The translations under genes were made by a program, and so were the position numbers. This document shows positions 14,191 to 58,152 of a DNA stretch of 64,000 bases, piece by piece. This DNA is from Octopus sinensis. Taxonomy: Eukaryota. Every line of letters begins with the position of its first letter. Position 1 is the stretch's first letter. The notes under the pieces are model-generated. The model did not search any database, was not told the DNA's origin, and worked only from the letters and a program-made list of their open reading frames with translations. The stretch is from positions 167,462,001 to 167,526,000 of the forward strand of contig NC_042997.1 of the NCBI RefSeq assembly GCF_006345805.1, written 5' to 3'.

Positions 14191-14195
<5 letters not shown>

Positions 14196-14720
14196 AATTT
14201 AGAGAAAAACCTCTATTAAACAATTCAATAAAGTAAGATGTTATTCACACCATATAGAAAACTTATACTATAAAAAAATCTTATTCTAAAAATCAATAAA
14301 ATACAATAAATTGTAATTAGTAGTAAAAAGACTACGCACGTTTCATGGCTATATTTTCAAATAGATAATAATAATAAAATCAATTCGATTTAAAATTAAA
14401 TCGAACTAAAATTAATTCTATTTAAAAAATATAGTCACTCATCAGGTCTAAGATAATAAATAATAAAAAAATAATAATAGAATAAATGTACTTATCTGAA
14501 CTTATACTAATTATCAAATAAATATATTAAAAAATACGTGTATTAACTATAAATAATCGAAAAGCATTTAACAATATTTCTGAAAATAAAAATATAACTT
14601 ATTCTGTCGAATTGTTTAATAGAGGTTTTTCTCTAAATTATATACATATATATTGTGAAATTTAATTTAAAATTGTTAATTGAATTTTTCCGTGTAAGTT
14701 TATAATTATTTCCCTAATAT

Positions 14721-14730
<10 letters not shown>
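14191..14730. mobile_element. Fold-back element in (TA)n enclosing a hammerhead, with an asymmetric tail
   Basis: Arms TATATAATTTAGAGAAAAACCTCTATTAAACAATTC (14191-14226) and its reverse complement (14609-14644); tail ends TTCCCTAATATTAT, like 41790-41835. Confidence 0.7.
14329..14449 (-). ncRNA. Type-I hammerhead motif with a very long AT-rich stem II
   Basis: Minus strand AGAC-CTGATGA-G-TGACTATATTTT...AAAATATAGCCA-T-GAAAC-GTGC-GTA-GTCT; canonical core, GUA site. Confidence 0.75.
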
Positions 14731-14760
<30 letters not shown>

Positions 14761-14915
14761 TATATATATATTATATAATATATATATATATATATATAAT
14801 AAAGCAGCATCAGCGTCCAACAGTGATTAGTATTCATGTTCTGATAGCATCTCGTACAGATGTATCGTGCTAAAGAGCACAAACATACATCAGTAGCAAA
14901 CCAAAAGCGTCCAAA

Positions 14916-14960
14916 TTGCTAAATCCAGATTTCTGCGTCCCTGCACTTCATCAGTAGCAA
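14916..14960 (-). ncRNA. Minimal hammerhead motif (AUU site)
   Basis: Minus strand TTGCTA-CTGATGA-AG-TGC-AGGGAC-GCA-GAAAT-CTGG-ATT-TAGCAA; perfect 6-bp stem I. Confidence 0.65.
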
Positions 14961-15489
14961 ATACCCACTATCAGCTGCTTGACATAGAACATCAGTGATT
15001 ACCAACCCACTGGTATCGCAAATAGCTGGTGGGCTGGGTAAAACTTCATTATTTGCGACGGAAGCAATATCGGTTTATTAGTTCAGAATACCATTTTGTA
15101 TATCATACTTATATTAGATATACTGTAGAAAATCATGCATTTGTGTATGTGTGTGTGTGTGTGCGTGCGTATGTGTGTGTTTGTGTGTGCGTGTTTGTGT
15201 GTGTGTGTATATATGTATGTACATACAAACATCGTTTTTAATATCGGGACTTAATAAAAATAAAGCTGCTATAAATAACAGCATGTAGCTTATCGGGATT
15301 AAAACCCCACTTGGATGGAAATTAAGTCGAAGGCTGCCCATTCATCTCAGACGTACATCGTCTGTGAACATGGCAGAGGTGATACTACGTCAAGAGTTGT
15401 AAATCCCACAGTTTACAAAACTTAATCGTTTTACTCTTTATAACCATGAAATCTAGCTATACTTTAGTATCATTTGGATTATTATGTTA

Positions 15490-16212
15490 GGAGCTGATGA
15501 CTTATTGCCGCTTTTTATTCTAATAAGTCAAGCAGAAACCCTTTTCCATAGTCATGAACACTCGTCCTAAGGATTTTGGTCTCCACGTTAACTCAGACAA
15601 AACAGAATACATAAGCTTAAATCAAAATGGAACAATCAAAACAGTATCTGGTACACCTCTCAACTGTGTAGAAGAATTTACTTACGTAGATACTAAAGTG
15701 TCTAGTTTCGTAGCAATGTAAACACACGCGTTGGTAAAGCCTGGCGTGCTGTCGGTATATTATCTCTAGTGTGGAAATCTAGACTTCCAGGCAACACGAG
15801 AAGGAGCCTCTTTCAAACAATTGTTAGCTCTGTTCTATCTTATCGCTGCTCAGCATGAACCCTTACCTCAAAATTGGAAAGAAGATTCGATGAAGCCTAC
15901 ACTTGTATGCTAAATGTGGCTTTGAATATCACCTGGAGAGATCATCTGACCGATGAGCGAGTGTATGGGAACCTTCGTCCAATATCAGACATCATCAAAG
16001 AGCGTAGAGTCAGATTTGTAAGGCTTTGCTGGAAAGCTAAAGACGAAATTGTTAGTTAAGTTCTTATGTGGGAGCCTACATAAGGAAGCTTTATCAGGGG
16101 ACGAAAAGCTAAGATTAATAGCAAGCAGATTTCTGATGACCTGCCGAATATGATAAACAATGGAATTGGATGACAACAAAGTCACGAGAGTGCGTGCCAG
16201 CAGTGCGACTGA
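15490..16212 (+). mobile_element. Decayed RTE/RTEX-like LINE, RT C-terminal part
   Basis: ADDL near 15493; GLHVNSDKTEYISLN...VEEFTYV; ORF 15874-16059 YTCMLNVALNITWRDHLTDERVYGNLRPISDIIKERRVRF. Confidence 0.8.
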
Positions 16213-16296
16213 ATGTATGTATGTATGTATGTATGTATGTATGTATGTATGTATGTATGTATGTATGTATGTATGTATGTATGTATGTATGTATAC

Positions 16297-16400
16297 TCTG
16301 TATTTGATTATTTGAAATAGTTCTCTAAGGAAGGAGCTGGTTTCTAACAAGGATACAAAACCCCATCGTTGGGAAGTAGATAGAAAAAATATGTATAACT
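16297..16400 (-). mobile_element. 3' UTR remnant of a (CATA)n-associated REL LINE
   Basis: Its reverse complement matches 29460-29540 (CCAACGATG..TTTTGTATC.TTGTTAGAAAC.AGCTCCTTCCTT); abuts (TATG)n. Confidence 0.7.
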
Positions 16401-17392
16401 GCATCTATGTACGTACATTTCTCGGCCTCTGTTTTATATTTGTTGATTTTCTTAAAGACGATGAGCACCGTTTTGTTGTATTCATATTTTTCAGCTTTCT
16501 CTAATATTCTTTATTTTCCCTATATATTCTCCACTCCTAAACAATATTTTCTAGTTGCGGAAGACCTATATTTCACTGTACTCGTAGCACGTATAATCTC
16601 TTCGTTGAGCAATGTATTCTAAATGACATTACTCGCGGTTTCCTTCTTGCGATTTATGTAACACCTTCTTTGCCTATATAATGATTATAACTGATTACTA
16701 TTAGAGCCACGGCATTCGATACCAATTCCTATTTTATCATGTAGTTCAGCTTTAATTTAAAGTGTCCACGATAATGATACGTTGTTGCTCTTTTTTATGT
16801 TTAGCCCCAGGTTACTCCTAGTACTACAGGCAAAGGATCAAATGCGTTCGCCTTAAGGCACTGCATTTCGTCTTTTATTCAAACCATACGAAGTGTAAGG
16901 AGTGCCTTTCAATATTGACGTTAGGGGAAATATAAGAGATAAATTTACTTGAAAAGAAGCCTCTAAACAGTTTAACTACATTTTTTGACTTAATAATACA
17001 TCTAAAGATAATTAATATTCACATTAGGAAAAACAACTTTTTATAAAGAAACTGCAATAATCAAGAAAGCAGATGGCTATCGGGGAAATGGTCAACAAAG
17101 CAGAAAAAATAGTGACCCCTGCAGGTTCTACTACACCAACCACTGAAAGTAGTTGATGTAGTATTAATACTATTATCTTGTAGCCAGTGCTGTTGCTGTT
17201 GTTGTCCTTGTTGTTGAAGATCTTGCACTTGTGGTGGATTAAGTGAAGTGAAATTAAACAGTTTGTAACATTATAAGGTCTTTAGTTAATGTTTAATTAA
17301 GCAATTATTTGAAGTTACTTAAATTTAGTTTAATAAGTGATGTGAAATAAATATATTTCTCTATTGCGTGGAGATATACACACAAACACACA

Positions 17393-17423
<31 letters not shown>

Positions 17424-17691
17424 CACGTTAAATGTAGTAAGTCAAGTAAAACAAATTCAAAACATGTATTGTACATACAGAAGTAATTTAAATGAATTCC
17501 CCTCCATTATCCTTACTACCACCAGAACCACAACCACAACCACAATGAAAACCACCACCACCACCATCGTCGGTTCAAACACCAATACTACCACCATAAC
17601 AAAACATTGACACTTCAAAAATCAAAACATTGACACTTCAACAGTACAGTATAGTAGTAGAATTAAAACCAACTCTTCACAAGGGTAAATA

Positions 17692-17755
<64 letters not shown>

Positions 17756-18054
17756 CATTATTATTATTATACTAAAAACATATAACAAGAAGTTGAAGTA
17801 CCAAGATTAGAAGTAGTAATACTCAGGAAACATCAAGAATATTGTAGTTACCAACTTCCATTACTTAAAATAACTTAACCAACACCAACTGCTTGAAAGG
17901 GGAGGTAAGTTATTTCTGATGGGTTTTTAATGTAAAGCGAAAATGTTTATCTCGCTCTTCAGCTTCAAGACTGCGCGTTTTAATCACAGACATTAATTTC
18001 ATTGTGAGACTAAGTATATTTTTTACTAAACCTATCGTGTACGATTGCAAATAA

Positions 18055-18150
18055 CAGTGTGGTTAAGGGTTCGGTCCCACTGCGCAGAACTTTGGAAAAG
18101 TGTCTTCTACTATAGCCCCAAGCCGACCAAAGCCTTGTGAGTCGATTTGA
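18055..18150 (+). mobile_element. SINE family B, 5' fragment
   Basis: GGGTTCGGTCCCACTGCGCAG...GTGTCTTCTACTATAGCC...CCGACCAAAGCCTTGTGAGT. Confidence 0.75.
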
Positions 18151-18445
18151 CATACATATATACATACAAACATACATACATAATGTATGCATACATACAT
18201 ACATACATACATACATACATACATACATACATAATGCATACATACATACATACGTACATACATACATACATACATACATACGTACATACATAATGCATAC
18301 ATGCATACATGCATACATACATACATAGATACATACATACATACATACATACATGCATACATACATGCATGCATACATACATGCATGCATACATACATAC
18401 AAAGATGCATACATACATACTTACATATATATACATATATATATG

Positions 18446-18523
<78 letters not shown>

Positions 18524-18524
18524 C

Positions 18525-18620
<96 letters not shown>
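18151..18620. repeat. (CATA)n/(TA)n/(GATA)n compound microsatellite
   Basis: Direct inspection. Confidence 0.95.
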
Positions 18621-18634
18621 TCGCCATGATAGAT

Positions 18635-18808
18635 TGTTAGCCACTACACACATTTTTTTCTCTTCTTGTTTTTTCTGTGTCCCTTTTGGTAGAAGAGCGT
18701 AGGCTCGAAACGTAAAAGACTTTTTCTATTCCTGAGCGTTATACTAATACATCTGTTTGTTTTGTACACCACCTATCTTCATCTTTTGTTTTTTTCGTAA
18801 ACTCTCCC
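18635..18808 (+). mobile_element. Solo PLE 3' end with a degenerate hammerhead-like motif at 18679-18720
   Basis: GAAGAGCGTAGGCTCGAAACGTAAAAGAC; homologous to 9368-9555 and 25745-25925. Confidence 0.7.
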
Positions 18809-18842
18809 TATATATATATATATATATATAGATATATATATA

Positions 18843-18890
<48 letters not shown>

Positions 18891-18910
18891 ATATCTATAT
18901 ATATATATAT

Positions 18911-19195
18911 AATTATTGATAGGGAAGACAGTGTACTGTAAGCTTTGTTTGACACGACAACCGTTTCGGCCTACAGTACACGCTGTCTTCCCTATCAATC
19001 ATTTAAAACATACTAAATGTGCACCGAGGAATTCCTACGTAGATCTTCCGACGAAAGTACGGTACTGCGGATGACGCCTGGTAGCCGTATGTGGTGAACA
19101 TGGTCTCAAAGCACACTACTAGCAACATACCTAAAATAAGGTATTGATACTACATTTTAATGTCTCATATCTAAACTTCAATTTAAGCGTAACCT
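18911..19195. mobile_element. Fold-back element in (TA)n with a tail
   Basis: ATTGATAGGGAAGACAG-TGTACTGTA inverted against TACAGTACAC-GCTGTCTTCCCTATCAAT; the loop carries minus-strand GGCCGAAACGGTTGTC (possible hammerhead 3' half). Confidence 0.55.
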
Positions 19196-19238
<43 letters not shown>

Positions 19239-19266
19239 TATATATATATATATATATATAATAATG

Positions 19267-19313
<47 letters not shown>

Positions 19314-19400
19314 GATGATGATGATGATGATGATGACGATAACAATACTAATAATAATAATAATAATAATATAATAATAATAATAATAATAATAATACTA
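19196..19400. repeat. (TA)n/(TAA)n/(GAT)n microsatellites
   Basis: Direct inspection. Confidence 0.95.
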
Positions 19401-19745
19401 GTAATCATCCTAACGCTCAAACTAAATATAGAAGTAATAACAAAGATAATAATAAACAATATATGGAAATGAATAAAGATAATTATAATATACTCATAAA
19501 TAAAAATAATAAGAAAAATGATCATAGTAAGGATAATACCAAAAATAATTCGAATGGAAATAAGCAGAATTATTATATACCCACCAGGGTAAGGGGAGTC
19601 AACACTGAAATTTTTAATTTCTTAGAAGTAAATGAAAAAAACTAAATGATGGAACCTGTAACTGGGGTAAATCTTTACCAAGTTCGGCGACAACTCTGGA
19701 TATGTTTTGGTATTCTTAAACCTTTTCAATGAAGCATAGTCTTAC

Positions 19746-23202: not shown

Positions 23203-23705
23203 AAACATTACGTTATATAATTAGGGTTCAGTAAAAAAATTTACTTTACCACACACCGAACTTTTAGAAATAGCAGCCAAAAAATTTTAGCTATTTCTTC
23301 TACTATAAGAAAAGTCTCCCAGACAATGTATACTAAAAAATAATTCACGTAGGTATAGAGGGAAAAATAACGAAAGATCACACGTACATCGATTACTTGA
23401 GAACGCCGTTTCTGGATTAGTTGGATAAGGAGATGCTAGAAATACATACTCCTATCAACATTTCTTTCGTCAGCCCAAGATATCGTTTGGTTTAAATTTG
23501 AGAGCACTTCTTATAGTAGAAGAAATAGCTAAAATTTTTGGGCTGCTATTTCTAAAAGTTCGGTGTGTGTGGTAAAGTAAATTTTTTTACTGAACCCTAA
23601 TTATATAACGTAATGTTTTAAATATACCGTAAATAGTCTTTTTACATACTGAACACTACTTGGTAAAATTAATTAATAATTAATTAATTTTACCCTTTTA
23701 TTATT
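23203..23705. mobile_element. Fold-back element with ~105-bp near-perfect arms enclosing a hammerhead, plus a tail
   Basis: 23203-23310 is the reverse complement of 23509-23618; tail TTGGTAAAATTAATTAA...TTTACCCTT then (TA)n. Confidence 0.8.
23396..23479 (-). ncRNA. Type-I hammerhead motif with an extended stem II
   Basis: Minus strand CTTGGG-CTGACGA-...GTTGATAGGAG...CTCCTTATCCAAC...-GAAAC-GGC-GTT-CTCAAG. Confidence 0.7.
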
Positions 23706-25029: not shown

Positions 25030-25923
25030 TTCAACTCCTGCTCTTTCTGTCCTTCTCTGTAAATCGGTCAGACGGGACGCCGCTTCGCTGATCGATTCGC
25101 GGAACACCACCGAGACATTAACTCGGCAATGACATCCCGGTCTCGTGCCATTTCCACTCTACCGGTCACTCTTTACAACACCTGCCAGTGTTCAGATTGT
25201 CTTTGCACAAGGAATATCTGGACTCCCACTTTCGCCGTGAACAGGAATTAATCTTCTCTCTTTGTTCCTTTGCGCCACATGGGCTCGACTCCCCTCTTCA
25301 TCTCTTCACTCCATCCTACCTCTCCTCTCTTGCCTTGACACCTACTTTCTCTCTTCACTCCTATCCACCTTCTCCCTTCATTGATACCCCTCCATCCACA
25401 CACACCCTCCACACAGCCCACTCCAACACGCTCCACTCACCCCCACATTCTCACACCACCCACACATCCTCACCCCACCCCCACATCTCCACCCTCACTT
25501 CCCCACACCCCAACACCACCAATCCACACCACACACCACCACATCACCACTCCACCCCACACTACTCAGTACACACTAGCACTGACCACTTCCCAGCATC
25601 CACACAGATTACAGACGCACACACACACGCACACACTTACTCACATACACGCACGCGCACCTTCGTTTTGGGATCACCAGTACTTTATTATCTATCCTTC
25701 TTCCTAGCTCTACTGTCTAATCACCTTTGTCAGTTAGCATGACTGACCGCTAACTACACAAGTTTTTTTAATTTTCTCTCTGTTTATTTCATCGTGTTCC
25801 TTTCTGTTGAAGAGCGTAGGCTTGAAACGTAAAATACTTTCTCACCTTCCCGAACGTCAAACTAATACACCTGCTTGTTGTTTATACACCTGTCTTCGTC
25901 TTTCGTTTTTCTGTAAATTTCAA

Positions 25924-25925
<2 letters not shown>
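25030..25925 (+). mobile_element. Neptune-like PLE: GIY-YIG endonuclease C-terminus plus 3' UTR/pLTR
   Basis: SCSFCPSL*IGQTGRRFADRFAEHHRDI...PVSCHFHSTGHSLQHL...REQELIFSLCSFAPHGLD; hammerhead-like motif at 25800-25837. Confidence 0.85.
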
Positions 25926-25967
<42 letters not shown>

Positions 25968-30944: not shown

Positions 30945-31505
30945 GTCTACACTTCTTCTTATATAAACTCTTACCCTCTGTGTAGCAGGGATTTCCACAG
31001 AACACATATACTACGTTATTACGTAAACAGGATCTGGCTAGCGGACACGACTCCTTAATTCGACAATTACATTCCCCCATCCCACATCGGTATTAATTTT
31101 CCGATTACTAGAGGTTTAATCGCCTCCGACTGTCAGGTGTTGACCTGACGTAATGTTTACGTTAGAGCTAGTATCAGTTTGGAAGTTATAGAGTTCATTA
31201 TAAAGATTTGTGTGGGTATATTTCTTAAGGCTGAGTTTAGATTTATTGATGGAAGCTATGCTCGAACCTAGATTCGGAGTTCTAGAGTACGACCATTTCC
31301 CTGAGGATTTATTAAAAATAGAATAATATTTATGATTTTTAGGAAGATTTTCCTTCAATATATTGAAAAACAATTTGGGTAAAGATTTGACTTGAAGACA
31401 GAAGGGCGGGGCAAACCATGTAATTTCACGTTTCCTAGATTTTGAGTATTTGGTCTGATTAGATTTTATATAGTTTTTATATTTATGTGAATTCCTAAAT
31501 GCCAT
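30945..31505 (-). mobile_element. PLE fragment (thumb to GIY-YIG N-half), inverted segment
   Basis: RKREITWFAPPFCLQVK...HKYYSIFNK...SYSRTPN; CNCRIKESCPLARSCLRNNVVY...RVYIR (YIG remnant). Confidence 0.85.
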
Positions 31506-33214: not shown

Positions 33215-33872
33215 TTCAATGTATGACAAAGTTTTACTGTTGTATTCGTCCGGCGACAATATCTGCCATGGGTGTGCTCTGTTTAAAAGCACAATATATA
33301 TATTGGATGAGGACAGAATTCATCCCAACAGCGGTGAGTGAGAACGTTACGTGTATTTCTGCCTTTGTTTAAGCCGATCAATAACGTGTACTCACTACCA
33401 GTATTCTTAGACGAAATCTATCATCACAGATATATACGAAAACAGTGAAGCAGCCATTGGTGCTCGATTGAAGAAAACAGCCGCTCGATTGAAGAAAAAT
33501 CCGTTATATAACGCAGAAACATTATCAGATTAAAAGAGTCATTTGGGTATCGTACTTAATGTAAATACATTGTGACAGGCAAAATTTACTGGATTTTTAT
33601 TCAGCCAGACGGCTACACCAGTGACTTAGTTCACTGTTTTCGAATACGTCTGACGAAAGATTTCGTTTAAGCATGCTAGCAGTGAGAACACGATATTCAT
33701 AGCGCCCAACGAGGCAAAAATGCATCTAACGTTCTCACTCGCTGCTGTTGAGACAAGCTACCCTTCGCAACGATATAAACATATTGTGTTTCTAAACACA
33801 GCGCATACATTGGAGATATTGTCTCTGGACGAACACTGCAATAAATTTTGCCTGTCACGATGTATTTGCATG
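33215..33872. mobile_element. Two diverged copies of a MITE-like repeat in inverted orientation
   Basis: 33215-33465 aligns to the reverse complement of 33610-33860; TIR-like TGTAAATACATTGTGACAGGCAAAATTTA (33560) / TAAATTTTGCCTGTCACGATGTATTTGCA (33870). Confidence 0.65.
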
Positions 33873-41131: not shown

Positions 41132-41411
41132 GGTGTGAGAGGATGGTTAAGTAATAGTTAATTTAGATAGGATACAAAATAGAGAGTGGGGTGGAGGAAA
41201 GAAAATAGCTGTGAGATATGTAGAGATATTGAAGTTGTAGATCCATTGTAGTAATGGATAAACAATTCCTTGGCATCTCTCTTAAGGACACACCGACTCC
41301 TCAATATATATGTATTTACTTATAATAAGTGTAGATCACGAGTGGGTATATATTTATAAAAAAGAAGTTTGAAAACGCCACTATATAAGATAAACTTTAA
41401 TTTTCTTAGAA

Positions 41412-41459
41412 ATTTTACATGTTTCGGTTCTTCTTGAAAAAACGAACCTTATCAAAAAT
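41412..41459 (-). ncRNA. Degenerate hammerhead motif
   Basis: Minus strand ATTT-TTGATAA-GGTTC...GAACC-GAAAC-AT-GTA-AAAT; two core substitutions. Confidence 0.5.
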
Positions 41460-41602
41460 ATTTTAAAAAGTTAAGTGTAATAAAAAAGTTCATAATTGTT
41501 TCTTACTGGTCTCAACAGAATCCACGTGGTTGTTTTTAGCTGCCTTATGTGTCCGAATGTGTCCGATAATATATATATAAAAACTCGCTAAGAAGGTCTA
41601 GA

Positions 41603-41654
41603 AACCACCTGAAGAATGTCTAAGATGTGCTGACACGAAACGATCGTAGTGGTT
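41603..41654 (+). ncRNA. Minimal type-I hammerhead ribozyme motif, intact core
   Basis: AACCAC-CTGAAGA-A-TGTC-TAAGATGTGCT-GACA-C-GAAAC-GATC-GTA-GTGGTT; followed by an AT-rich tail ending TTCCCTAATATT and then (TA)n. Confidence 0.85.
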
Positions 41655-41859
41655 ATTCATTTGTTAAATTTTAATTTATATAAATTATTTTATGTATTGG
41701 CTTAAGTCTTTCTTTGTTTGATTTGCATAATAATGGTTTTGTCTCTAATTATTATAATATAATATTTTACTATAAAATTGGATTCAATCTTAAATCTGAT
41801 TTTTCCTTGTAAATTTGGATTTATTCCCTAATATTATTATTATATATATATATATATAT

Positions 41860-41891
<32 letters not shown>

Positions 41892-43883: not shown

Positions 43884-44682
43884 AACATTTGGAAACAATT
43901 TTTTTATTTTTGTCTCATTCGAACCGCCTATATTTTCACAGGGAACAGTAATGGATGTATCTCACATTATAAATAATTCCATATATTCTGTACCACAAAG
44001 GTTTAGTGATTTTTTCAATACATAAATGATTGTCCTTTTCGTTTCATCTCGAAAAGTTACATTGCAAATACATTCACCTATAAAATATAATTTCTTTCCA
44101 GTTACACCCTATGCTACTTTATTTGATTTAGATAATTTCGGCTTACCGCTTTGCCTCCATGTTTCTTCATTTGTGATAGTGATGTCACTCCACGTGTCTA
44201 ATTGCATTTCGACACTAGTAGCTTCGATTCTCTGACGAATTTTCTGTTTGTTGTACAAAGTCTTTTCTCTGATGGCCAACTATTTATTTTTTCTCGTTTG
44301 GACCAATTTTTCGACATCTTAGTTGTGCAGTGCGATTTGATGTGCCCTGTGTTCTCACATTGAAAACACTGCTTTTTTGAAAGGACACTCGTTTCTCAGA
44401 TGCCTACCATCGCATGCCATACATAGGTCTATCTCCTGTTGTATATCGTATTTTTTGGGAAACACTTTATCCGTCTTCCGAGTCTTCCAAACTGGTTTTA
44501 TCTGTAAACAATCTCTGCGTTGGATTTTTTTTGTGTCGTGCCTTACTTTTTATATCTTATCACACACTTCTGACAGTTTCTGGAGAATTATATCCTGTTC
44601 TATATTTAAGAGATGAGGAATTATGTACATTATTTACATTATTTACATTTAACGGATATTTGTCCACATCTTGTTTGTTGTT

Positions 44683-44728
44683 AACACAACGTTTCGGCTG
44701 ATATACCCTCCAGCCTTCATCAGGTGTC
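44683..44728 (-). ncRNA. Minimal hammerhead motif, minus-strand copy
   Basis: Exact reverse complement of 44777-44822. Confidence 0.8.
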
Positions 44729-44776
44729 GAAATTTCCCTTCATCAGGTGTCGAACCCAGGTTCGAAATTTCTCCAA

Positions 44777-44822
44777 GACACCTGATGAAGGCTGGAGGGT
44801 ATATCAGCCGAAACGTTGTGTT
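44777..44822 (+). ncRNA. Minimal hammerhead motif (GAAAC-GUU, no loop 3)
   Basis: GACAC-CTGATGA-A-GGCTG-GAGGGTATAT-CAGCC-GAAAC-GTT-GTGTT. Confidence 0.8.
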
Positions 44823-45907
44823 AACAACAAACAAAATGAATACAAATATCCGTCAAATGTAAATAATGTAAATAATGTAATTATATCCTGGTTCATTTCC
44901 AGCTTTGCGAGAATTTTCGTTCTGACTTCTCCGATCTTTTTAGCAGTAAGTCTCTGAGTAAAAATCAGGCACTTGAACGAATCTGAAGTTAGTTTATCCA
45001 GTTTAAATTTGTTGCAATCTCTGTTCCCTCTGCCCGCATTTGTGGTAAAGCCTTCGTCATCGCTTTTCTCAGTTTTCAAACACTTCCAACGTGTGTTGAG
45101 CAACGATGATTTTTCACTAAACATCCTACATAAAATGTCAATTTTGTCCGTGAAATTTATGTCAGAAACTTTTTTAGGCAATATAAAGTTATAGTATTTT
45201 TTGTGCTCTGTCGTCGCCAGTTTCCTCGAATTAGATGAGTTTTCATTTCATCCGTCCAGTTTTGGCATATCTTTTTGGAAAATTCGTTCAAATCTTCGGT
45301 AATATGCTTTGAAGGTGACTCTTTCTTCCGGGTCAAATCTAAATTCATTTATTGAATTTGCTACATGGTCTGGCGAAAACATATTTTCCGGTTTTGTTAC
45401 CAACTTCATTGGCTGTAGCATTTGTTGTTCTTGTTGTTCTTTGAGTTGCTACAATAGTACGACATACAAAACGTCATAAAGAGCTACATGCATCTCGATA
45501 GCCACAGATTGCCTATGTTTCATGTATAGAAACTCGTTTGGAGCAAGGGATGTAAAGGGACATATATAAAAGTTTGGTTTCGTTTTTCAGTTCAAGGTTA
45601 TTATATACCAACTCATCTGGAACAAAGCATGACTGAAGTTAGATGTTCAGAGACATAAAAAGATTACCATAATCTATATTAATCTGATGATCTTCATAGC
45701 TGAAATGATACAAAAATTTGTTAATCCGGTTTGAAATTTAAAGAATGAGAGATTATAAAAATAACTTTGAAATTATCAAAGCGATCTTATTTCTTTTCCA
45801 ATTTTCTAATTCTTTGATGTTATACATATACATATATAAATACATACATACATGTGTGGTGTGTGTGTGTGTGTATGTGTGTGTGTGTGTGTGTACGAGT
45901 GTGTGTG

Positions 45908-47735: not shown

Positions 47736-47976
47736 TACATATCTATGCATGTCTACGCCTACATATGTTTATATATAAAATTGAATAAGGGTAGAAATTG
47801 AAATTAATCAATTAAAACCAGTGGCCTAGTATATAAAAATAATCCGAAGATTAAAAATATTTTTTACATACAAAATTTAAAGGACTGACCACTAAAAGTG
47901 GACAGTCAATATGCTAGATATAGCGTGGAAAATAGCGATTTTGACGTCTATATCTAGTAAATTTTGTATGTTTATA

Positions 47977-50737: not shown

Positions 50738-50774
<37 letters not shown>

Positions 50775-50778
<4 letters not shown>

Positions 50779-52580
50779 CAGAAAATTTTAAAGGGACTGG
50801 ACGTAAACATCCAATTCACGATGGAATATAGCCAACAACAACTCCCCTTCCTCGATATCCTCATTAAGAAAGCTAATAATATAATAGAAACAGACATATA
50901 CTATAAGCCTACAGACTCTAAGCAATATCTTCCATTCAATTCATGCCACCCCAGACACACCAGGATGAATATCCCCTTCAATCTAGCAAAAAGGATATGC
51001 ATATAGTCTCTAACGCAAACACCAGAGACACACGACTACAAGAACTAAAAGATACCCTAATCACCAGGAACTATCCCTTCCTTATTGACAAGTGCATTCA
51101 ACGTGCCTTCAACTAACATCAAGGAACTGAGACATCCAAATCAAAGAAAAACTTACAACCAAAAGCCTTACCATACATCTCCACACACAACCCTCTCAAT
51201 AACGAAGCCTTCGACACCATCCTCCACAACATACCCCTCCTAAAAAAAGACCACAGAATGAACACAATCCTCCAAACACACACGATCATAAAAAGCAAAA
51301 GACAGCCTAGATCCATGAAAAGTCTCCTTACACAAGCCCGAATTCACTCTTCAACACAGAAGCCGACAGTAAAAAAATGTGGAAGACCCAATTGCGGGAT
51401 ATGCGACTATCTAATCGAGGGTTCTGAGTTCTCCTTCAAACAGGGACAACGGTTTACAGTGAAAGCAACTTCACATGTGCTTCGGAGAACCTAATATACT
51501 CACTAACCTGCTCCGGGTGTCAAGAGCAGTACATAGGCCAAACAAAAAATGGTTTGCGTAAACGAATGGCCCTGCACAGAGATCCAGATAAAAATTCCCA
51601 AAAAAGAAAAATAGCTTTTAGCCAACACATAGATACTTGCGCCAACAAAAAAACACCAAACTTCAGAATTTTCCCCCTCTACCAATTTAGGGACGATACA
51701 ACCTCGAGACAAAGAATAAGTAAAGAAAATCTCTTTATTACAAATACAAGCCACTTCTTAACGGGTCTACGACAAACAATTAATATACCTCAACTTTAGA
51801 ATAAAAGAAAAATATATATATACACACACAAATACTACACTCCATAGAATCCATTACTAATCAGCCCCTTCATAGCTATATTTACACCCTTCATATTCTC
51901 CCTCTCTTGTTTCTTTCTTCTTCTTCTTCTTCTTCTTCTCTTCTTCATCATCATCGTTATCATCATCATCGGCGTCATCATCATCGCCACCATCATCACC
52001 ACCATCTTCTCCTTCTCCTCCTTCCTCTTCTTCTCTTCTTCATCATCATCGTTATCATCATCATCGTCGTCATAATCATCACCACCATCACCATCATCTT
52101 CTCCTTCTCCTTCTTCTTCTTCTTCTTCTCTTCTTCTCCCACCCCCTACCCCTTAAGTTTGTCACTAATGTTTTTTAGTATAACACCTACGCTAATTCTA
52201 TAAACAAGCCTGTCAATATAAATATTCTCCTGAATTGAACTGAGACTGCCAGCCGCCACTGACCATTCAAAATACGACCATCAGGGCACTCCCAGATTCT
52301 CCCACCCCCCTTTCCTCACCAGCCTTCCCTCTACTACCTCCCAAGAACTCACAACTACCTCGAACACACAAGTGCAAACAAGGGAGTCAGAGAAAGGCAG
52401 AATGCCACTTAAATCTGAACACTACTATAGAAATATTCTTTTAAAAAAACTTTTCTTCTAATTTTTCTAAATTTAATTATTTAATCGTTACAGTTTGAAA
52501 AGGTCTCAAAATGACCGAAACCGGTACTGAAATGTTCACTATAAAATTATTTTAGCATTTTCTATTTTTTACTTGTTTTT
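50775..52580 (+). mobile_element. Neptune-like PLE, 5'-truncated: RT end, thumb, Zn finger, GIY-YIG, 3' UTR
   Basis: IQFTME...LPFLDI...TDIYYKPTDSKQYLPFNSCHP; CGRPNCGIC; NLIY..TCSGCQEQYIGQT; flanked by (TA)n at both ends. Confidence 0.92.
52491..52529 (+). ncRNA. Degenerate hammerhead motif at the PLE 3' end
   Basis: CAGT-TTGAAAA-GGTC-TCAAAAT-GACC-GAAAC-CG-GT-ACTG. Confidence 0.55.
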
Positions 52581-52581
52581 C

Positions 52582-52614
<33 letters not shown>

Positions 52615-52655
52615 TACGCACACATATGTATTAATAAATATATATTCATGTATAT

Positions 52656-52700
<45 letters not shown>

Positions 52701-52712
52701 ATACATACATAT

Positions 52713-52804
<92 letters not shown>

Positions 52805-52868
52805 ATACATGAATATATATATATATATACATATATATTATAATATATATGTGTATATTCATGTCTAT

Positions 52869-52939
<71 letters not shown>

Positions 52940-52944
52940 TTAGT

Positions 52945-53041
<97 letters not shown>
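52582..53041. repeat. (TA)n and (GATA)n microsatellites
   Basis: Direct inspection. Confidence 0.95.
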
Positions 53042-53043
<2 letters not shown>

Positions 53044-53467
53044 CAGGGCGTATTCCGTCATGCACATGCCTATACACGCTGTTACCTGTGTATCACAAAT
53101 TCCTCTTTCTGCTAAACCACACTGACTGAAAAATGCACTCAATCACACCACCCTGCTTGCACCTTTGGTATTATCAACAAACAGAGGTCGGCTTCGTAAC
53201 TTCCGAAAGCGACATCTACCGGTCGATTCTCAAGCCAGATATTCCTGTTCTTGACGTCATCTTTCTAATATAAGACCAATCCTTTCAATTCAACTTATTT
53301 TTAGTGAACAGCACTTCTTTATTACCGATGCACCACCTACCTTAAAAAGTCTCACACTTGCCCTTATCCTACACCGAGACACCGTGTATCAAAAATAGAT
53401 TCTGGTCGAAAACAAGATATTTCATGATAAATTTCGTTGTTTTTGTGAGATTTTTTTATGGCACTGG

Positions 53468-54054
53468 TTATTCTTATTATTGCTGTTGTTGTTGTTGTTG
53501 TTGTTGTTGTTATTGTTGCTGTTTATGACGTTATTGTTGGTGGTGGTGGTGGTTGTCCTCGTGGTTGTAGCGGTGGTAACGGTGATGATGGTGATGGTGG
53601 TGTTGTTAATGATGGATGGTGATGGTGGTAGTGGTGGTAGTGACGGTGATGGTGATGGTGGTGGTGGTGGTGGTGGTGATAGTGTGTAACTGGTGGTGGT
53701 GGTGGTGGTGATGATGGCGGTGATGATGGTTGTGATGGTGGTGATGCTGTTGATCATGATGGTAATGATGATGGTGGTGTTGTTAATGATGGATGGTGAT
53801 GGTGGTGTTGTTAATGATGGATGGTGATGGTGGTGGTGGTGGTGGTGATGATGGCGGTGATGATGGTTGTGATGGTGGTGATGCTGTTGATCATGATGGT
53901 AATGATGATGGTGGTGTTGGTGATCGTGGTGATGATAGTGGTGGTGGAGGTGAAGAATGTGATTGTAGTGGTGATGGTGGTGGTGGTGGTAATAGTAGCT
54001 GTGGTGGTTGTGGTGATGGTGGTGATCGTGATCGTGGTGTGGAACTGGTGGTGG
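53468..54054. repeat. (GTT)n/(GGT)n/(GAT)n trinucleotide low-complexity tract with internal duplications
   Basis: Direct inspection; followed by a SINE A fragment at 54055-54155 (-). Confidence 0.9.
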
Positions 54055-54280
54055 AAATTTCGAGTGAGGGGTAAGTCGATTACTTCGACCCCAGTACTCA
54101 AACGGTATTTATTTTATCGACCCCCGAAAGGATGAAAGGCAAAGTCGACCTCGGTTATTATTGTTGCTTCTTTGTGTTGACGAAATGTGGTTCACGTGTT
54201 TACAGTAAGTCTGTGTTGCGCTTTGCTTTCTTCACTTTTTTTCTGTGCGTGTGTTGTGAGCTGGGAGTGTTGTGGGGTTT

Positions 54281-54548
54281 TTTACTCGTTTACTCGTTTA
54301 CTTGTTTCAGTCATTTGACTGCGGCTATGCTGAAGCACCGCCTTTAATCGAGCAAATCGACCCCGGGACTTATTCTTTGTAAGCCCAGTACTTATTCTAT
54401 CGGTCTCTTTTGCCGAACCGCTAAGTGACGGGGACGTAAACACACCAGCATCGGTTGTCAAGCAATGCTAGAGGGACAAACACAGACACACGAACATATA
54501 CATACACATGCACATATATATATATATATTATATATTATATATATATA

Positions 54549-54587
<39 letters not shown>

Positions 54588-54748
54588 TCCGCCAGGCTTC
54601 TTTCAGTTTCCGTCTACCAAATCCACTCACAAGGCTTTGGTCGGCCCGAGGCTATAAGCAGAAGACACTTGCCCAAGATGACACGCAGTGGGACTGAACC
54701 CGGAAGCATGTGGTTGGTTAGCCAGCTACTTACCACACAGCCACTCCC
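54281..54748 (-). mobile_element. SINE family B
   Basis: Matches the other B copies; expanded internal (TA)n. Confidence 0.9.
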
Positions 54749-54799
54749 ATGTAACTCTTAGTATTTTTGTTGTCTATTTTTGTCGCATGTTTAGGTTCA

Positions 54800-56100
54800 G
54801 TGAGATGTTTTGTTTTTTATATTTGATATTCTTTGGTATTGCTTGCAAGAAAATGGGAAGAGGATTTGGTAGGTGGTATTTTTCAAATCAGTTTCAACCA
54901 GGTTTTTAAGTGCTTTCAGTTCTGTTTCTAAGTGCTTTAAGAGCGGTTGTGCAGCAGTGCCTGAAGACTGGTTGGAGAGTATGTGTATAATATCCTATTT
55001 GTATAAGGTTGCCTGTATATTTTGTAGAGGTGCTAGAAAGTCGTGTAGGTAGAGGCTGGAAAGCGTAGGTGAGGTGACAGGTTTTGTATTCCATGCTGCA
55101 AACTACAAGTTCTGGAAGTGTTGTTCTTGTACACTTCTTAGACTAGGAAACCCACGGGTGTTCTATTATCCAGTAGCTTCTGTTGTTTATTATAGAGACA
55201 TTAAGTATTCTAGTATAAGTTCATATCGGGGAATGGCATCGAAAGCTCTTCTGATGTCGATAAAGGTTACAACAGTATTTGTAGCAGTTTTCGTTATATT
55301 TTATTATGTATTGTTCCTTTCTTTTTAGTCACTATGCATTTTCAGCGAAGTCGCGTGGCTTAATGGTTAGGGCATTCAGCTCACGATTGTAAGATTGTCA
55401 GTTCGATACTTTATTTCACGTTGCTCCAGTCCATTCAGCTGGCAAAAATGAGTTACGTCTGTAATATAAAAGGCAAGCCTTGTCTCACTTTGTGTCATGC
55501 TGAATCTCCTTGAGGACTACGTTAAGAGTACACTTCTCTATTAAGTGCTCAGCCACTTGTATGTAATTTCACGAGCAGGCTGTTCCGTTGATCGTTTCAG
55601 CTGGAACCTTGTCGTCATAACCGACGGAGTGCCATTTTCTGCGATAGGTTTCCGATTAGTGCAATAATTAAGTGTGGTGGTTTGAATCCATGATGTAATT
55701 TGGAGAGAGGGCTGTGATGTTAGCTATTACAATTCCTGAAATATTTTAGAGTATGCTCATAAGGGTGATGAACCTGCATGATGTTATTTCATTTGGGTTT
55801 TCAGTTGCGTTTTATAATTGTTATGATTTTACCCATCTTGTATATTTTGTTAATTTGACAGTGCTGATTGTTGTAGATGTTCATAAGTGCGATGATTCCT
55901 TGAAATCCTAGACGTTTTTGGTTAAGGTTTGTGAATTTGTCTGGCTCAACAGCTTTCGAATTTTTAGATTTTCTTAATTTCTTTTATGTTTGATAGAAAG
56001 AAATGCTAGAAGTTACGGTTTCTGGTAAAGATACATATTTTTAAAATTTATGTCCCTATCTTTTTCGTGTGATTTTTTTAGAGGCTATTTTCGGAAAATG
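54800..56100 (-). mobile_element. Heavily decayed Jockey/I-like LINE RT, split by a SINE
   Basis: KSKNSKAVEPDK...KMGKIITI...SCRFITLMS...HHGFKP; NTVVTFIDIRRAFDAI. Confidence 0.65.
55345..55635 (+). mobile_element. SINE related to family C
   Basis: GCGTGGCTTAATGGTTAGGGC...GTTCGAT-ACTTTATTTCACGTTGCTCCAGTCCATTCAGCTGGCAAAAATGAGT. Confidence 0.75.
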
Positions 56101-56189
56101 CCTGATGAGATTATTTATTTTGTATTGCGTTATGGGTATATTATTTGAGATTGTTATAGTAGCATATGGTATGGTATGGTTCTCGTTGT

Positions 56190-56675
56190 TACTAAGTTGA
56201 AGAAAAAGTTCGTTAAAATAATGATTTTTTTATGTAAGAATCTATTCAAAAACAACTCTTCTTCTAAATAAAGACCATTATTTTCCATGATCTTCTACCA
56301 ACGATCTGCAAGTACCAATCCTTCGGCTTTGAATCGAAAAATTCTTGACAAGCTTCTTCAACTTCATTGAATGACTCAAATCGGTGACCTTTCATAAAGG
56401 GATGCATTGATCGGAAGAGACCGTAGTCAGATGGAGCAACGTCTAGACTATTGGCTGGATGCGGCAGAACTTCCACACCGTCCAGTTCTTCAATTTTGTT
56501 ACTGGTCTTTCTGGCGGTGTGCGGCTTTGCATTGTCTTGTTGAAACAAAGCGTGTTTCGAGGATCACAGTGAGTCACCATTGAACATGACATAAACTGAA
56601 TGAACACACACACTACAAAAATATATAAAACAGCATTATTTTAACACGGCGCACGAACTTTTTCCTTAATCTAAT
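56190..56675 (-). mobile_element. Internally deleted mariner
   Basis: ORF 56264-56548 QDNAKPHTA...HPANSLDVAPSDYGLFRSM; imperfect TIRs ...GAAAAAGTTCGT / ACGAACTTTTTC... Confidence 0.85.
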
Positions 56676-56914
56676 ATTATTAACATGTTGAATTACACAA
56701 TAAACAGTATTACTGTTGTTTTATGGTTTATGTTTGAAATATGTTTACCAGTTTGCCAACTTTATGTGGTCTATTATATTTTTTTATTTCCTTGTTTAAT
56801 TGTTTAATATTATTTTTTATTTCGGTTGTGTATACTGTTGATGAAGTGTGTTTCAAGTTGTCTCTGGTTTTATGAGATTAGTATTTCTGCTAGATAATAT
56901 ATTGCTCACTACTT

Positions 56915-57750
56915 AGGGGGAGAATTGGCAGAATTGGTGCAGCGTCGCATACAATGTCTTGCTGTAGTTGCGGCCCGCTGCGTTCTGAGTTCGAGTCCCG
57001 CCAAGGAAGACTTTAGCTTTCGTCTTTCCAGGGTCGATAAAATAAGTACCAGTCTAATGTTGGTGTTAATAAAATTGACGAAAACTTTCCCCAAATTTAA
57101 GTCCTTATGCCTATGTGAGCAATCAGTATTTCTCACTATTGAAGAGGATGGATCAACGGAATTGGGGGAGCAGCAGACTTAAAGTAGTGAGGTATTAAGT
57201 TGAGGTCCTTTATATTCTGAGTTCAAATTCCAATGATGTCCACTTTGCCTTTCATTTTTTCGGGATCGATAAAATAAATACTAGTTGATCTTTGGGTCGA
57301 TGTAATCGACATACGCTCTTCCTCGAAATTGCTAGCCTTGTGCTAAAATTTGAAACCAATATTAATAGCTTATTAACTAAGCGGGGGAACTGGCAGAATC
57401 GTGAGCACGCTGGGCGAAGTGCTCAGCGGTATTTCGTCTGCCGTTACGTTCTGAGTTCAAATTCCGCCGAGGTCGACTTTGCCTTTCATCCTTTCGGGGT
57501 CGATAAATGAAGTACCAGTTACGCACAGGGGTCGATATAATCGACTTAATCTGTTTGTCTGTCCTTGTTTGTCCCCTCTATGTTTAGCCCCTAGTGGGTA
57601 ATAAAGAAATAGGTATTTCGTCTGCCGCTATGTTCTGAGTTCAAATTCCGCCAAGGTTGACTTCGCCTTTGATCATTTCAGGGTCGATAAAATAAGTATC
57701 AGTTGAGTACTGAGGTCAAAATTGCTGGTCTTGCGCCAAAAATGTAATCA
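56915..57750 (+). mobile_element. Cluster of three SINE family A copies (the last is a dimer, 57378-57750)
   Basis: Repeated GTTCTGAGTTCAAATTCC...TTTCGGGGTCGATAAA..AGTACCAG. Confidence 0.85.
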
Positions 57751-57762
57751 GTATTATATAAA

Positions 57763-58152
57763 AAATCGTTACTTGCACAGTGTAACAGTGAGAGCTGGAA
57801 CGAATATTTGCATATTTATTTTTATATCGATTAGCAGATATGAGCACTGATCAGCAAATATTTTGTTCGCTGAAAGAATAAACAAAGGCCAGCTGTTTGA
57901 CTAGACTCAAGAGTCCGGGGTACTTCTAGCTGATGAGACACAACATGTCGAAACACTGGTGTCCCAGAATCTTCTGCGCCAATGAATCATGTGTGTTGAA
58001 CATACAATCACCATAGAAGAGAGAAGATTTTCTCCTTTGATGTTCATTACAGTGACCAGCATATTTTGAGTCCGAACCTGCCTAGACGGATGAAGAATAA
58101 ATATGCAAATATTCGTTCCCGATCTCACTGTAAACGGTGCAAATAACGATTT
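57763..58152. mobile_element. Fold-back element with ~60-bp arms enclosing a hammerhead
   Basis: AAATCGTTACTTGCAC...GGAACGAATATTTGCATATTTATT is inverted at 58093-58152. Confidence 0.75.
57924..57969 (+). ncRNA. Type-I hammerhead ribozyme motif, canonical core, GUC site
   Basis: TTCTAG-CTGATGA-GACA-CAACA-TGTC-GAAAC-ACTGGT-GTC-CCAGAA; one mismatch in stem I. Confidence 0.85.

Follow-up and report, generated by a model that had tools for sequence, protein, structure and literature searches.

What makes a short stretch of DNA fold back on itself? The question is raised by six loci in the window, i.e., the whole stretch of 64,000 nucleotides of Octopus sinensis DNA analyzed here. An earlier note had described them as a recurrent architecture of inverted arms, a central hammerhead ribozyme and a tail on one side only, and had proposed retrotransposed derivatives of Penelope-like elements (PLEs), or retrozyme-like units, rather than MITEs. 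Do these loci form one kind of element? From what do they derive? And how were the two arms of each produced? The copies used to address these points are the best 30 hits per genome search, and the samples consequently lean towards young copies.

Arms, tails and hammerheads in the window

The inverted arms are present at every locus named. At 14.2 kb, an inverted-repeat search of the window returned arms of 41 bp (14197-14237/14598-14638, 90% identity); those at 23.2 kb measure 110 bp (23204-23311/23508-23617, 97%), those at 44.6 kb 113 nt (44616-44728/44777-44889, 92%), and those at 57.8 kb 66 bp (57758-57823/58093-58157, 88%), while the pairs at 18.9 and 47.8 kb were verified by mapping against family copies. 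What does not survive is the idea of a single recurrent element: the six loci represent six unrelated families, here A to F, and their top cross-match is 16 nt (E 0.002; for family C, the comparison covered the final ~110 nt).

Each locus resolves into two copies in opposite orientation. At 14.2 kb (L061), a 5′-truncated, tail-less family A 3′ end lies on the minus strand (14198-14612, reference -500 to -79), holds the hammerhead and ends in (TA)n; the second copy, on the plus strand (14609-14728, -107 to 0), bears a tail of ~80 nt. The 18.9-kb locus (L121, family E) joins a tail-less minus-strand copy (18911-18970) to a tail-bearing plus-strand one (18969-19195, -234 to 0; tail ~190 nt) that ends in (TA)n. 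Family B, at 23.2 kb (L001), has the same layout, with a tail-less copy at 23204-23508 (minus strand, -394 to -82) and a tail-bearing copy at 23507-23705 (plus strand, -198 to 0; tail about 85-95 nt), again ending in (TA)n; the (TA)n ends claimed for several elements are thus seen at 14.2, 18.9 and 23.2 kb. The family C locus at 44.6 kb (L031) consists of a tail-bearing minus-strand copy (44598-44751; tail ~35 nt), in which a short internal duplication places a second core half at 44746, and a tail-less plus-strand copy (44752-44878). The 12-bp TSD noted there is real (44586-44597 and 44879-44890, unstranded). At 47.8 kb (L151), the tail-bearing family F copy (47775-47942, minus strand, -167 to 0) is truncated 3′ of the family hammerhead, and the tail-less copy (47924-47972, plus strand) has an internal deletion; their junction is an imperfect palindrome. 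Finally, the 57.8-kb locus (L091, family D) pairs a short inverted copy (57760-57824, minus strand) with about one full unit (57814-58157, plus strand). Here both arms extend as far as the distal end, giving a tail/tail pair, and so the one-sided tail, which is found at 14.2, 23.2 and 44.6 kb, is missing; no TSD was seen at this locus.

Type I hammerhead motifs occur in the named elements at 14445(-), 23473(-), 44723(-), 44782(+) and 57930(+), the numbers giving core position C3. Those of family A (14328-14451, minus strand; stem II insert ~94 nt; fold z -4.4) and family B (23396-23479, minus strand; insert 54 nt) are long-stemmed, whereas that of family D (57924-57969, plus strand) is a canonical three-stem ribozyme. 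Rfam scored only this last one of the five, at 57.9 kb (RF00163, 34.1 bits). With a relaxed motif scan, the window yielded 10 distinct cores, whereas 100 shuffles gave 0.83 on average (max 3). Stem II inserts of 44-93 nt characterize families A, B, E and F. The hammerhead core is kept among copies: in arms that span it, the 10-nt core is intact in 26/30 cases for A, 26/30 for B, 91/143 for C, 5/22 for D, 6/11 for E and 6/9 for F, and the commonest core letters are the canonical ones in all six families.

The half ribozyme at 18.9 kb and its absence at 47.8 kb are effects of truncation. The family E copy keeps only the GAAA half because its 5′ end falls inside the hammerhead, and longer copies of families E and F hold the full motif. 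Likewise, only truncation that happened to leave the ribozyme in the middle makes it central; at 44.6 kb there is instead one in each arm. The hammerhead probably travels as a passenger with the 3′ repeat of the element and does not cause the fold-back. The architecture matters mainly for annotation, in which such loci are wrongly labelled as MITEs and hammerheads with long stems go unnoticed.

Fixed 3′ ends and the formation of the pairs

The 5′ junctions vary from copy to copy (family A starts range from -34 to -1016), and the 3′ ends are fixed at two sites, distal and proximal, that differ by the tail. The counts (distal/proximal/other) are 13/22/5 for A, 22/16/2 for B, 88/71/9 for C, 19/6/13 for E and 33/20/1 for F; in family D, 3′ ends cluster in two places, at about 350-363 and 387-400 in query coordinates, and a few inverted pairs were read by eye. 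Tails measure about 35-38 nt in C and D, about 80-95 nt in A, B and F, and ~190 nt in E. Variable arms with constant 3′ ends are what an inversion generated at insertion had been predicted to leave, and the claim that the arm pair is made at that moment is supported.

Could these nonetheless be true MITEs, i.e., non-autonomous DNA transposons with fixed terminal inverted repeats? They are short, have inverted ends and often sit in TA-rich sites. However, nearly every copy has an arm length and a junction of its own, the ends are asymmetric, and many copies have no inverted arm at all, a complete pair being present in 13/28 loci of the tail-only family C sample. Family C TSDs are 10-14 bp long, and longer copies continue into tandem units or into sequence that encodes RT/GIY-YIG. 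With neither invariant terminal inverted repeats nor a short constant TSD, MITE identity was rejected and retains next to no probability; retrotransposition, as the earlier note had it, is the reading that the junctions, 3′ ends, TSDs and PLE-type sequence support.

The central observation concerns how the two ends are combined. Genome-wide, 88/93 head-to-head pairs unite one tail-bearing and one tail-less end: 6/6 in family A, 7/7 in B, 53/56 loci in C, 4/4 in E and 18/20 in F. The five exceptions are four tail/tail pairs and one tail-less/tail-less pair. The C and F sets were selected with inverted queries, which inflates the frequency of inversion and of junction palindromes; among family C loci chosen without regard to the tail (L261-319), 21/22 pairs are mixed.

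Another question is whether a pair records one event or two. PLEs are reported, in the review PMC6765202, to land next to copies already in place, and (TA)n targets attract clusters. Four families have such targets: (TA)4+ adjoins 25/35 3′ ends in family A, 33/38 in B, 15/25 in E and 51/53 in F (10/159 in C; background 8%). A later copy landing beside or inside the first in opposite orientation is nevertheless very improbable. A single TSD surrounds the whole pair in 45/57 family C entries (score at least 8, against 1.7% of 809 mismatched flank pairs), the pairs are head to head and of mixed tail class, and the arms share subfamily markers: at marker -125 of family C, arms of the same insertion agree in 86% of 43 pairs, with 52% expected. 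Marker -57 shows no such concordance (0.60 vs 0.63 expected). In families A, B, C and F, variants are shared 2-6 times more often inside one insertion than across insertions; no within-insertion sharing was found in family E (3 pairs, 147 sites).

Variants common to both arms would also be left by a single cDNA that snaps back at a palindrome to serve as its own template, or by insertion of a palindromic master RNA. Junctions do favor short palindromes, overlaps of at least 2 nt being present in 35/58 against 32% in simulated joins, and several full-length family C pairs meet at the same hairpin. Self-copied arms, however, would have equal 3′ ends, while in 88/93 pairs it is precisely the tail that sets the two ends apart; arms that stop at separate RNA sites are hard to reconcile with fold-back of a single cDNA. 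In addition, the outer end of the second arm is the fixed proximal site adjoining the TSD, and arm starts often lie far apart (e.g., -107 and -500). This origin is therefore improbable. The earlier note had left the choice between fold-back and second priming; the former is improbable, and priming on both strands fits.

Each fold-back, then, consists of two 5′-truncated copies of one PLE 3′ end, joined head to head and nearly always of mixed tail, that probably arose in a single insertion in which the element's enzyme nicked both strands and primed reverse transcription on each, from two RNA start sites. The pair itself is already known: an inverted 5′-truncated copy with a one-sided tail is described for PLE insertions (Craig et al. 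2021, PMC8557442, in its account of insertion units), so that the loci are not a new class. For the green anole Poseidon in vitro, the results that bear on this point (Frangieh et al. 2024, PMC11167929) include cutting and extension of both strands, two RT start sites that define the tail, a predicted dimer, and dispensable hammerhead cleavage. Combining that system with the present counts, a probably dimeric RT-endonuclease would make staggered nicks in the target; one active site would start at the distal RNA site and the other at the proximal one; both cDNAs would mostly terminate early, and their 3′ ends would then be joined, frequently via short self-complementary sequence. The near-strict mixed pairing and the shared variants amount to a genome-scale prediction, in which the in vitro RT start sites are mapped onto two target strands.

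Parents, ORF-less units and a tRNA-like cassette

Which elements donate these ends? The loci at 14.2, 18.9 and 44.6 kb are 5′-truncated 3′ ends of ORF-bearing PLEs. In family A, RT and CxCX5C-GIY-YIG pieces were recognized in six long copies by motif reading and tblastn; Pfam gave no significant hit for the ORF fragments. Its pieces (L183, L185, L186) carry the CxCX5C linker, no CCHH, and CxxC/CxH near the EN end, as in the Hydra clade defined in PMC8557442 (in its clade descriptions), and the (TA)n flanks (25/35) match Hydra-clade targeting. Family E resembles this clade; its coding evidence is an endonuclease piece, whose single copy has one linker cysteine changed, and its 3′ sequence lies downstream of an endonuclease-coding piece in 5/13 other loci. 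Long copies of family C have an RT 23-39% identical to an intact Neptune ORF (tblastn) and a GIY-YIG region. The broken frames of L320 and L322, read by eye, show the Penelope/Poseidon-clade combination of a C-terminal GIY-YIG with CCHH and no Zn-finger linker, and the targets are not microsatellites (TA flanks 10/159, plus TSDs). The labels of Hydra type for A and E and Penelope/Poseidon type for C are suggested by motifs and targets. Among the retrieved copies of these three families, no full-length copy and no intact ORF was found; all are broken.

The loci at 23.2, 47.8 and 57.8 kb (families B, F and D) are, by contrast, ORF-less tandem hammerhead units of the retrozyme-like kind, of ~582, ~540 and ~335 nt, respectively. 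Tandem copies are L013 (period 582) and L014 in family B and L163 in F, and 9/30 family D loci read through the unit end. The longest stop-free frames are 71, 66 and 104 aa in B, D and F; none of the three families matched three PLE proteins by tblastn, and no autonomous partner sharing their 3′ end was found. The proposal of ORF-less, retrozyme-like units is supported for these three loci; that all six are minimal ORF-less derivatives is not supported, since longer copies of the 14.2, 18.9 and 44.6 kb families carry RT and/or GIY-YIG coding sequence. The ORF-less units may borrow the PLE RT-endonuclease machinery in trans. Their PLE insertion marks support the proposed partnership between PLEs and retrozymes, and are a more direct sign of PLE-mobilized animal retrozymes than co-occurrence.

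Family C holds the one surprise. In the 3′ UTR, after the stop codon, its longer copies contain a tRNA-like cassette, absent from the window because both 44.6-kb arms are truncated 3′ of it. Its A box lies at +8 and its B box at +53; in 15 distinct tRNA genes of this genome they lie at +8 and +52-54. The best global alignment (z 6.8) is to tRNA-Arg. The cloverleaf has decayed, and no tRNA was called by ARAGORN (0/14 loci) or Rfam (0/2 copies); a decayed tRNA fold is common in SINE heads. Among tail-selected loci, 14/15 arms that reach the cassette start stop between -9 and +5, i.e., within 14 nt, against ~5% expected, which is how a SINE-like RNA driven by a Pol III promoter would behave, and 26/29 complete heads start between -18 and +2. 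Short copies are only slightly less diverged than long ones (4.4% vs 5.8%, in a sample with selection bias). The lack of T4 runs (0/27 copies) is uninformative, since ORF windows lack them as well (0/16).

What sets this 5′ end? With modest confidence, the tRNA-derived cassette is most likely a putative Pol III promoter that would define the start of a ~290-nt SINE-like RNA. A tentative alternative, clearly less probable, dispenses with a promoter: RT would stall, or two cDNAs would pair, at a GC-rich hairpin over the first bases of the cassette. A 24-nt hairpin (-9.1 kcal/mol) does span the start, and symmetric pairs meet at its loop, with a 2-nt center in both orientations, as expected for two annealing cDNA ends. 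Both subfamily marker sets (-125, -56) occur in long and short copies, and RNA-seq shows no discrete RNA ends: reads neither start nor end in pile-ups at the cassette or ribozyme, and depth is equal on both strands. Yet copies also start at the cassette when their partner arm is missing or has its truncation at another point (e.g., L208, L210, L213, L272, L277); an RT stalled by the hairpin would presumably stop at its 3′ base, not just beyond its loop; within the cassette, another hairpin of similar energy (about -9 kcal/mol) is no hotspot of that kind; and the boxes keep the spacing of real tRNA genes. Excision from a long transcript by RNase P-type processing would place the RNA start at +1, where 7/29 complete heads begin (+1/+2). 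The majority start 2-14 nt upstream, and with the cloverleaf decayed and no tRNA called, this route is unlikely.

If the promoter reading is followed through, family C would be a Penelope-driven SINE in the making, a proposal that we hold at even chances. A Poseidon-type PLE would have captured the putative promoter just past its stop codon, and an RNA of ~290 nt, consisting of promoter, (AAT)n, hammerhead and tail, would be inserted in trans by the parent RT-endonuclease, most copies that reach this point being SINE-like. Were the cassette a working Pol III promoter, PLEs could spawn SINE-like progeny; no such PLE was found in the literature searched (Repbase and Dfam lay outside its scope). 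PLEs would then have SINE-like and retrozyme passengers of their own, and family C would serve as a template for the origin and movement of Pol III/hammerhead repeats such as schistosome Sm-alpha.

Relation to described systems

Relative to the cited literature, as far as its accounts of these elements extend, the additions made here are the 80-190-nt tails, the hammerheads with stem II inserts of 44-93 nt, and the family C cassette. The closest relatives are the EN+ PLE insertion units of PMC8557442, which, as described there, are alike in 5′ truncation, the adjacent inverted 5′-truncated copy, the tail at one end, the terminal-repeat hammerhead and Hydra-clade (TA)n targeting. Their tails are given as 30-40 bp, a range into which C and D fall and which the other families exceed, and the near-strictness of mixed-tail pairing, counted here, is not quantified in that account. 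The in vitro Poseidon system matches in two-strand cutting and extension, two start sites, dispensable hammerhead and predicted dimer; the results cited from PMC11167929 include no genomic analysis of head-to-head pairs, and the octopus elements are other families, known here from sequence.

The 44.6-kb layout corresponds to the dual minimal hammerheads, one on each strand and separated by 100-700 bp, of Cervera and de la Pena (2014, PMC4209133). In both, each arm holds one minimal type I motif whose helix III is palindromic, a layout attributed in that description to truncated PLEs. Helix II is 6-8 bp there, far shorter than the stem II inserts of families A, B, E and F. Families B, D and F resemble the animal non-LTR retrozymes (Cervera and de la Pena 2020, PMC7229834; Li et al. 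2026, preprint 10.64898/2026.07.22.740005) in that they, too, are tandem units that lack an ORF and contain a type I hammerhead. For those, dependence on PLEs was proposed from co-occurrence and pLTR similarity. Unlike the retrozymes as described in these accounts, the present units show the PLE insertion signature, with two 3′ ends, and mixed-tail inverted pairs in B and F; the latter two also exceed the 170-400-nt range given in PMC7229834.

As for the cassette, the schistosome Sm-alpha/Sj-alpha SINE-like hammerhead retroposons, in the outline given by the review PMC6765202, share with family C a Pol III-type promoter (putative in C) followed by a hammerhead. They are presented there as ORF-less tandem repeats, with no partner named, whereas the family C cassette lies within the 3′ UTR of a PLE that bears an ORF, and the copies carry PLE insertion marks. 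The TRIMp3 elements Helenus, Ajax and Cassandra (Kojima 2024, PMC10886601, as characterized there) offer a shared theme, a Pol III promoter of small-RNA-gene origin in a retroelement terminal repeat, possibly via SINE insertion; those are non-autonomous LTR elements, while family C is a PLE whose parent encodes both RT and endonuclease.

Fold-backs and hammerheads in the window

Every fold-back in the window consists of a minus-strand and a plus-strand copy of one 3' end, facing apart, and is read here as two 5'-truncated 3' ends placed head to head. What looks like an "arm" is the stretch common to both copies, what looks like a "centre" is the private part of the longer copy, and the "tail" sits on whichever copy started at the distal site. 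The earlier note had seen a recurrent fold-back layout, with a central hammerhead and in most cases a one-sided tail, at 14.2, 18.9, 23.2, 44.6, 47.8, and 57.8 kb (here families A, E, B, C, F, and D, respectively). The inverted arms are indeed present at these places, the 12-bp TSD claimed for C is exact, and the proposed origin of the fold-backs in retrotransposition of the Penelope-like element (PLE) type is borne out as a real insertion pattern. Three details had to be revised: the six loci have no common sequence beyond chance, the ribozyme of C sits in each arm instead of the middle, and D is without the one-sided tail. The half ribozyme of E and the missing one of F stand as local observations, but longer copies of both hold the full motif, so that these gaps are due to where each copy is truncated.

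A motif scan of the window places type I hammerhead cores at 14445 (-), 23473 (-), 44723 (-), 44782 (+), and 57930 (+), and yields 10 distinct cores against a mean of 0.83 over 100 shuffles. The one hammerhead that Rfam scored in the window is the 57.9-kb motif of D, and microsatellite matches dominate its output; the genome around the window (2.72 Gb) is microsatellite-rich. In all six families the core diverges less than its surroundings, which may come in part from base composition and not from selection. Is hammerhead cleavage then the origin of the 5' ends? This candidate was rejected: two of the 24 body-internal starts listed fall at -92 (counted from the 3' end), adjoining the predicted site, and there is no hotspot.

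Hammerheads of A, B, E, and F carry stem II inserts of 44-93 nt, and such long-stem-II forms, one of which likewise lies beside an intact Neptune-type PLE (locus L247, near 640-760), escape Rfam and short-spacer descriptors. Other repeats in the window have related features. Three copies of another TA-flanked family (9375-9611, 18597-18863, and 25773-25965) bear a hammerhead-like GAAA half, and at 41304-41886 a minus-strand Neptune-type 3' end adjoins another hammerhead element (core 41609, +), whose own 3' end resembles the tail of A. Two older fold-backs, at 33233-33845 (219 bp, 74%) and 6352-6839 (140 bp, 72%), have no hammerhead core in the scan.

Identity of the six families

Each of the six elements was searched genome-wide and the best 30 loci per element were fetched; C was additionally sampled by its tail alone, by an upstream cassette, and by the ORF end. 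Before counting, 23 duplicate loci were removed, L042 was counted once for the pair classes, and arms were mapped onto one natural copy per family.

Family A can be followed upstream for over 2.6 kb, into sequence coding for RT and GIY-YIG that has a CxCX5C linker and lacks CCHH. C runs into RT and a linker-less GIY-YIG. The 3' sequence of E comes after an A-like endonuclease piece in L127 and also at 5 of 13 further loci, in two cases via deletions. The ORF copies of all three are broken. As judged by motifs, not trees, A bears the Hydra-clade signature as defined in PMC8557442, and C is of the Penelope/Poseidon type. Pfam returned nothing significant for the fragments of A or for L184 (3673-5628, -), where a different Hydra-like PLE has an open frame of 652 aa that is 37-46% identical to the RT of A. 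In the window, 31230-31418 (-) is a fragment resembling a Hydra-like PLE ORF (39% over 64 aa).

Families B, D, and F occur as tandem units (582, about 335, and about 540 nt, respectively) that continue past their own 3' end into the following unit, gave no PLE-protein match, and fit non-LTR retrozymes in form. The B tandems counted are L013 (= L018) and L014 only; the pattern also matched L005, L008, L019, and L030, of which L005 is a head-to-head junction and hence outside the count. L014 contains, at 2327-3090, a diverged tandem B subfamily (72-83%) with the hammerhead core and stem I kept and stem II shorter. The earlier suggestion of ORF-less or retrozyme-like units thus holds for B, D, and F, and fails for A, C, and E, whose longer copies or linked loci carry PLE coding pieces.

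The earlier note had also proposed a search for autonomous PLEs with the same tail. Intact Neptune PLEs exist in the genome, with 781-789-aa frames holding RVT_1 and GIY-YIG; none of those fetched has a 3' end in common with B-F, and they were discarded as partners. In tail length and TA targeting B and F are like A, and D is like C, so that B and F may be paired with A-like partners, and D with a C-like one. As for Neptune itself, 50775-52605 (+) of the window is a 5'-truncated, (TA)n-flanked copy with 96% identity to L247, which has an intact 784-aa RT/GIY-YIG frame, and in three Neptune subfamilies (L247-L257) the 3' ends, here too either tail-less or tail-bearing, are separated by about 35-40 nt and lie beside (TA)n.

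Two 3' ends and the pairing of arms

Aligning copies genome-wide, as the earlier note had advised, revealed 5' ends that differ from copy to copy in the mapped arms of all families and 3' ends fixed at two preferred sites in every family, a distal one with the tail and a proximal one without it. The tail is shortest in C (about 35 nt) and D (about 38 nt), longer in A (about 80 nt) and in B and F (about 85-95 nt), and reaches about 190 nt in E. Ends lie at (TA)n in A (25/35), B (33/38), E (15/25), and F (51/53), against a background of 8%, and rarely in C (10/159).

How are the two ends combined? The ends of 93 head-to-head pairs could be classified, and 88 of these pairs combine one tail-bearing with one tail-less arm (A 6/6, B 7/7, C 53/56, E 4/4, F 18/20). 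For C loci chosen regardless of tail the figure is 21 of 22. In 45 of 57 C entries the pair as a whole lies within a single TSD, mostly of 10-14 bp; the rate among 809 mismatched flank pairs is 1.7%. Two arms have more variants in common when they belong to one insertion than when they come from different ones; this holds for A, B, C, and F, and the three pairs of E gave no such excess. Two C subfamily markers are concordant between arms more often than expected (86% of 43 pairs versus 52%, and 78% versus 60%), and a third has no excess concordance. Overlaps of at least 2 bases occur at 35 of 58 close junctions versus 32% in simulated joins, in a collection whose C and F sets are query-enriched. 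A complete inverted partner is present in 13 of 28 loci of the tail-only C sample; inversion is therefore common but optional.

An inverted 5'-truncated copy with a one-sided 30-40-bp tail is a standard PLE feature (Craig et al., PMC8557442), restated in a curation guide (PMC8969392), and hammerhead pairs on opposite strands, 100-700 bp apart, have been described (Cervera and de la Pena, PMC4209133). In vitro, a Poseidon protein was found to cut both strands and to extend them from two RNA start sites, the interval between the sites being the tail; a dimer is predicted, and ribozyme cleavage is dispensable (Frangieh et al., PMC11167929). From this published work and the counts obtained here, which are observed directly in the copies, we infer the enzymatic steps: the most likely route would be staggered nicks in target DNA, priming on both strands with one RNA start site per strand, early stops of both cDNAs, whose template may be one RNA molecule or two RNAs of the same source locus, and finally a joint between the cDNAs at their 3' ends.

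A further observation concerns the sequence ahead of the 3' ends. In families A-F both ends tend to fall 10-25 nt past a short motif of similar type, which is rich in pyrimidines in the families that target TA and reads TAAATA in C. In F it matches at 32/32 and 18/18 ends, in A at 6/12 and 14/22, and the pattern was picked post hoc, without a proper null.

The cassette of family C and known precedents

Longer copies of C carry a tRNA-like cassette of 75 nt between stop codon and hammerhead, then (AAT)n, a tract often broken by later LINE-end-like insertions (L203, L208, L247, L264, L270, L289, and L298). Its A box lies at +8 and its B box at +53, while all 15 distinct tRNA genes fetched have A at +8 and B at +52-54. 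The best alignment is with a tRNA-Arg (z 6.8); ARAGORN and Rfam made no tRNA call on it. We lean slightly toward regarding it as a putative Pol III promoter. Runs of T4, which could serve as terminators, were absent from all 27 copies and equally from all 16 ORF windows. A stand-alone tRNA SINE was rejected, the sequence upstream being the end of the PLE ORF.

The cassette start is also where copies begin. Among complete cassettes chosen by the cassette alone, 26 of 29 start at -18 to +2 and three continue into the ORF; in tail-picked loci, 14 of the 15 arms reaching the cassette start stop at -9 to +5. Two arms were read by eye owing to internal deletions, and two belong to a single symmetric pair. 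From the way longer copies decay, stops of about 5% would be expected per 16 nt. Overlapping the cassette start is a hairpin of -9.1 kcal/mol, which might halt RT or bring two cDNAs together by pairing; this explanation deals poorly with starts whose neighbour is an unrelated point or ordinary target DNA. RNA reads (three raw runs that carry the label of a related species, plus one contig set) have strand-switch joints clustering at the same place, and the hotspot therefore extends beyond this assembly. They have no pile-up of starts or ends at the cassette and equal depth on both strands, and are compatible with either the presence or the absence of a Pol III transcript.

The insertion pattern itself is already published for PLEs. 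The by-products are a tail-pairing rule in numbers, marks of PLE insertion on the retrozyme-like units, long tails, ribozymes with long stems, and a Pol III promoter that a PLE may carry. The main text of an octopus repeat annotation (PMC13282606) does not mention hammerheads, and a squid genome paper, in its available text, counts them and nothing more (PMC6962438). In the open-access articles searched, no PLE with such a cassette was found. Partial precedents come from two sides: the schistosome repeats, which combine a Pol III promoter with a hammerhead (review, PMC6765202), and the tRNA-like promoters of TRIM LTRs (PMC10886601).
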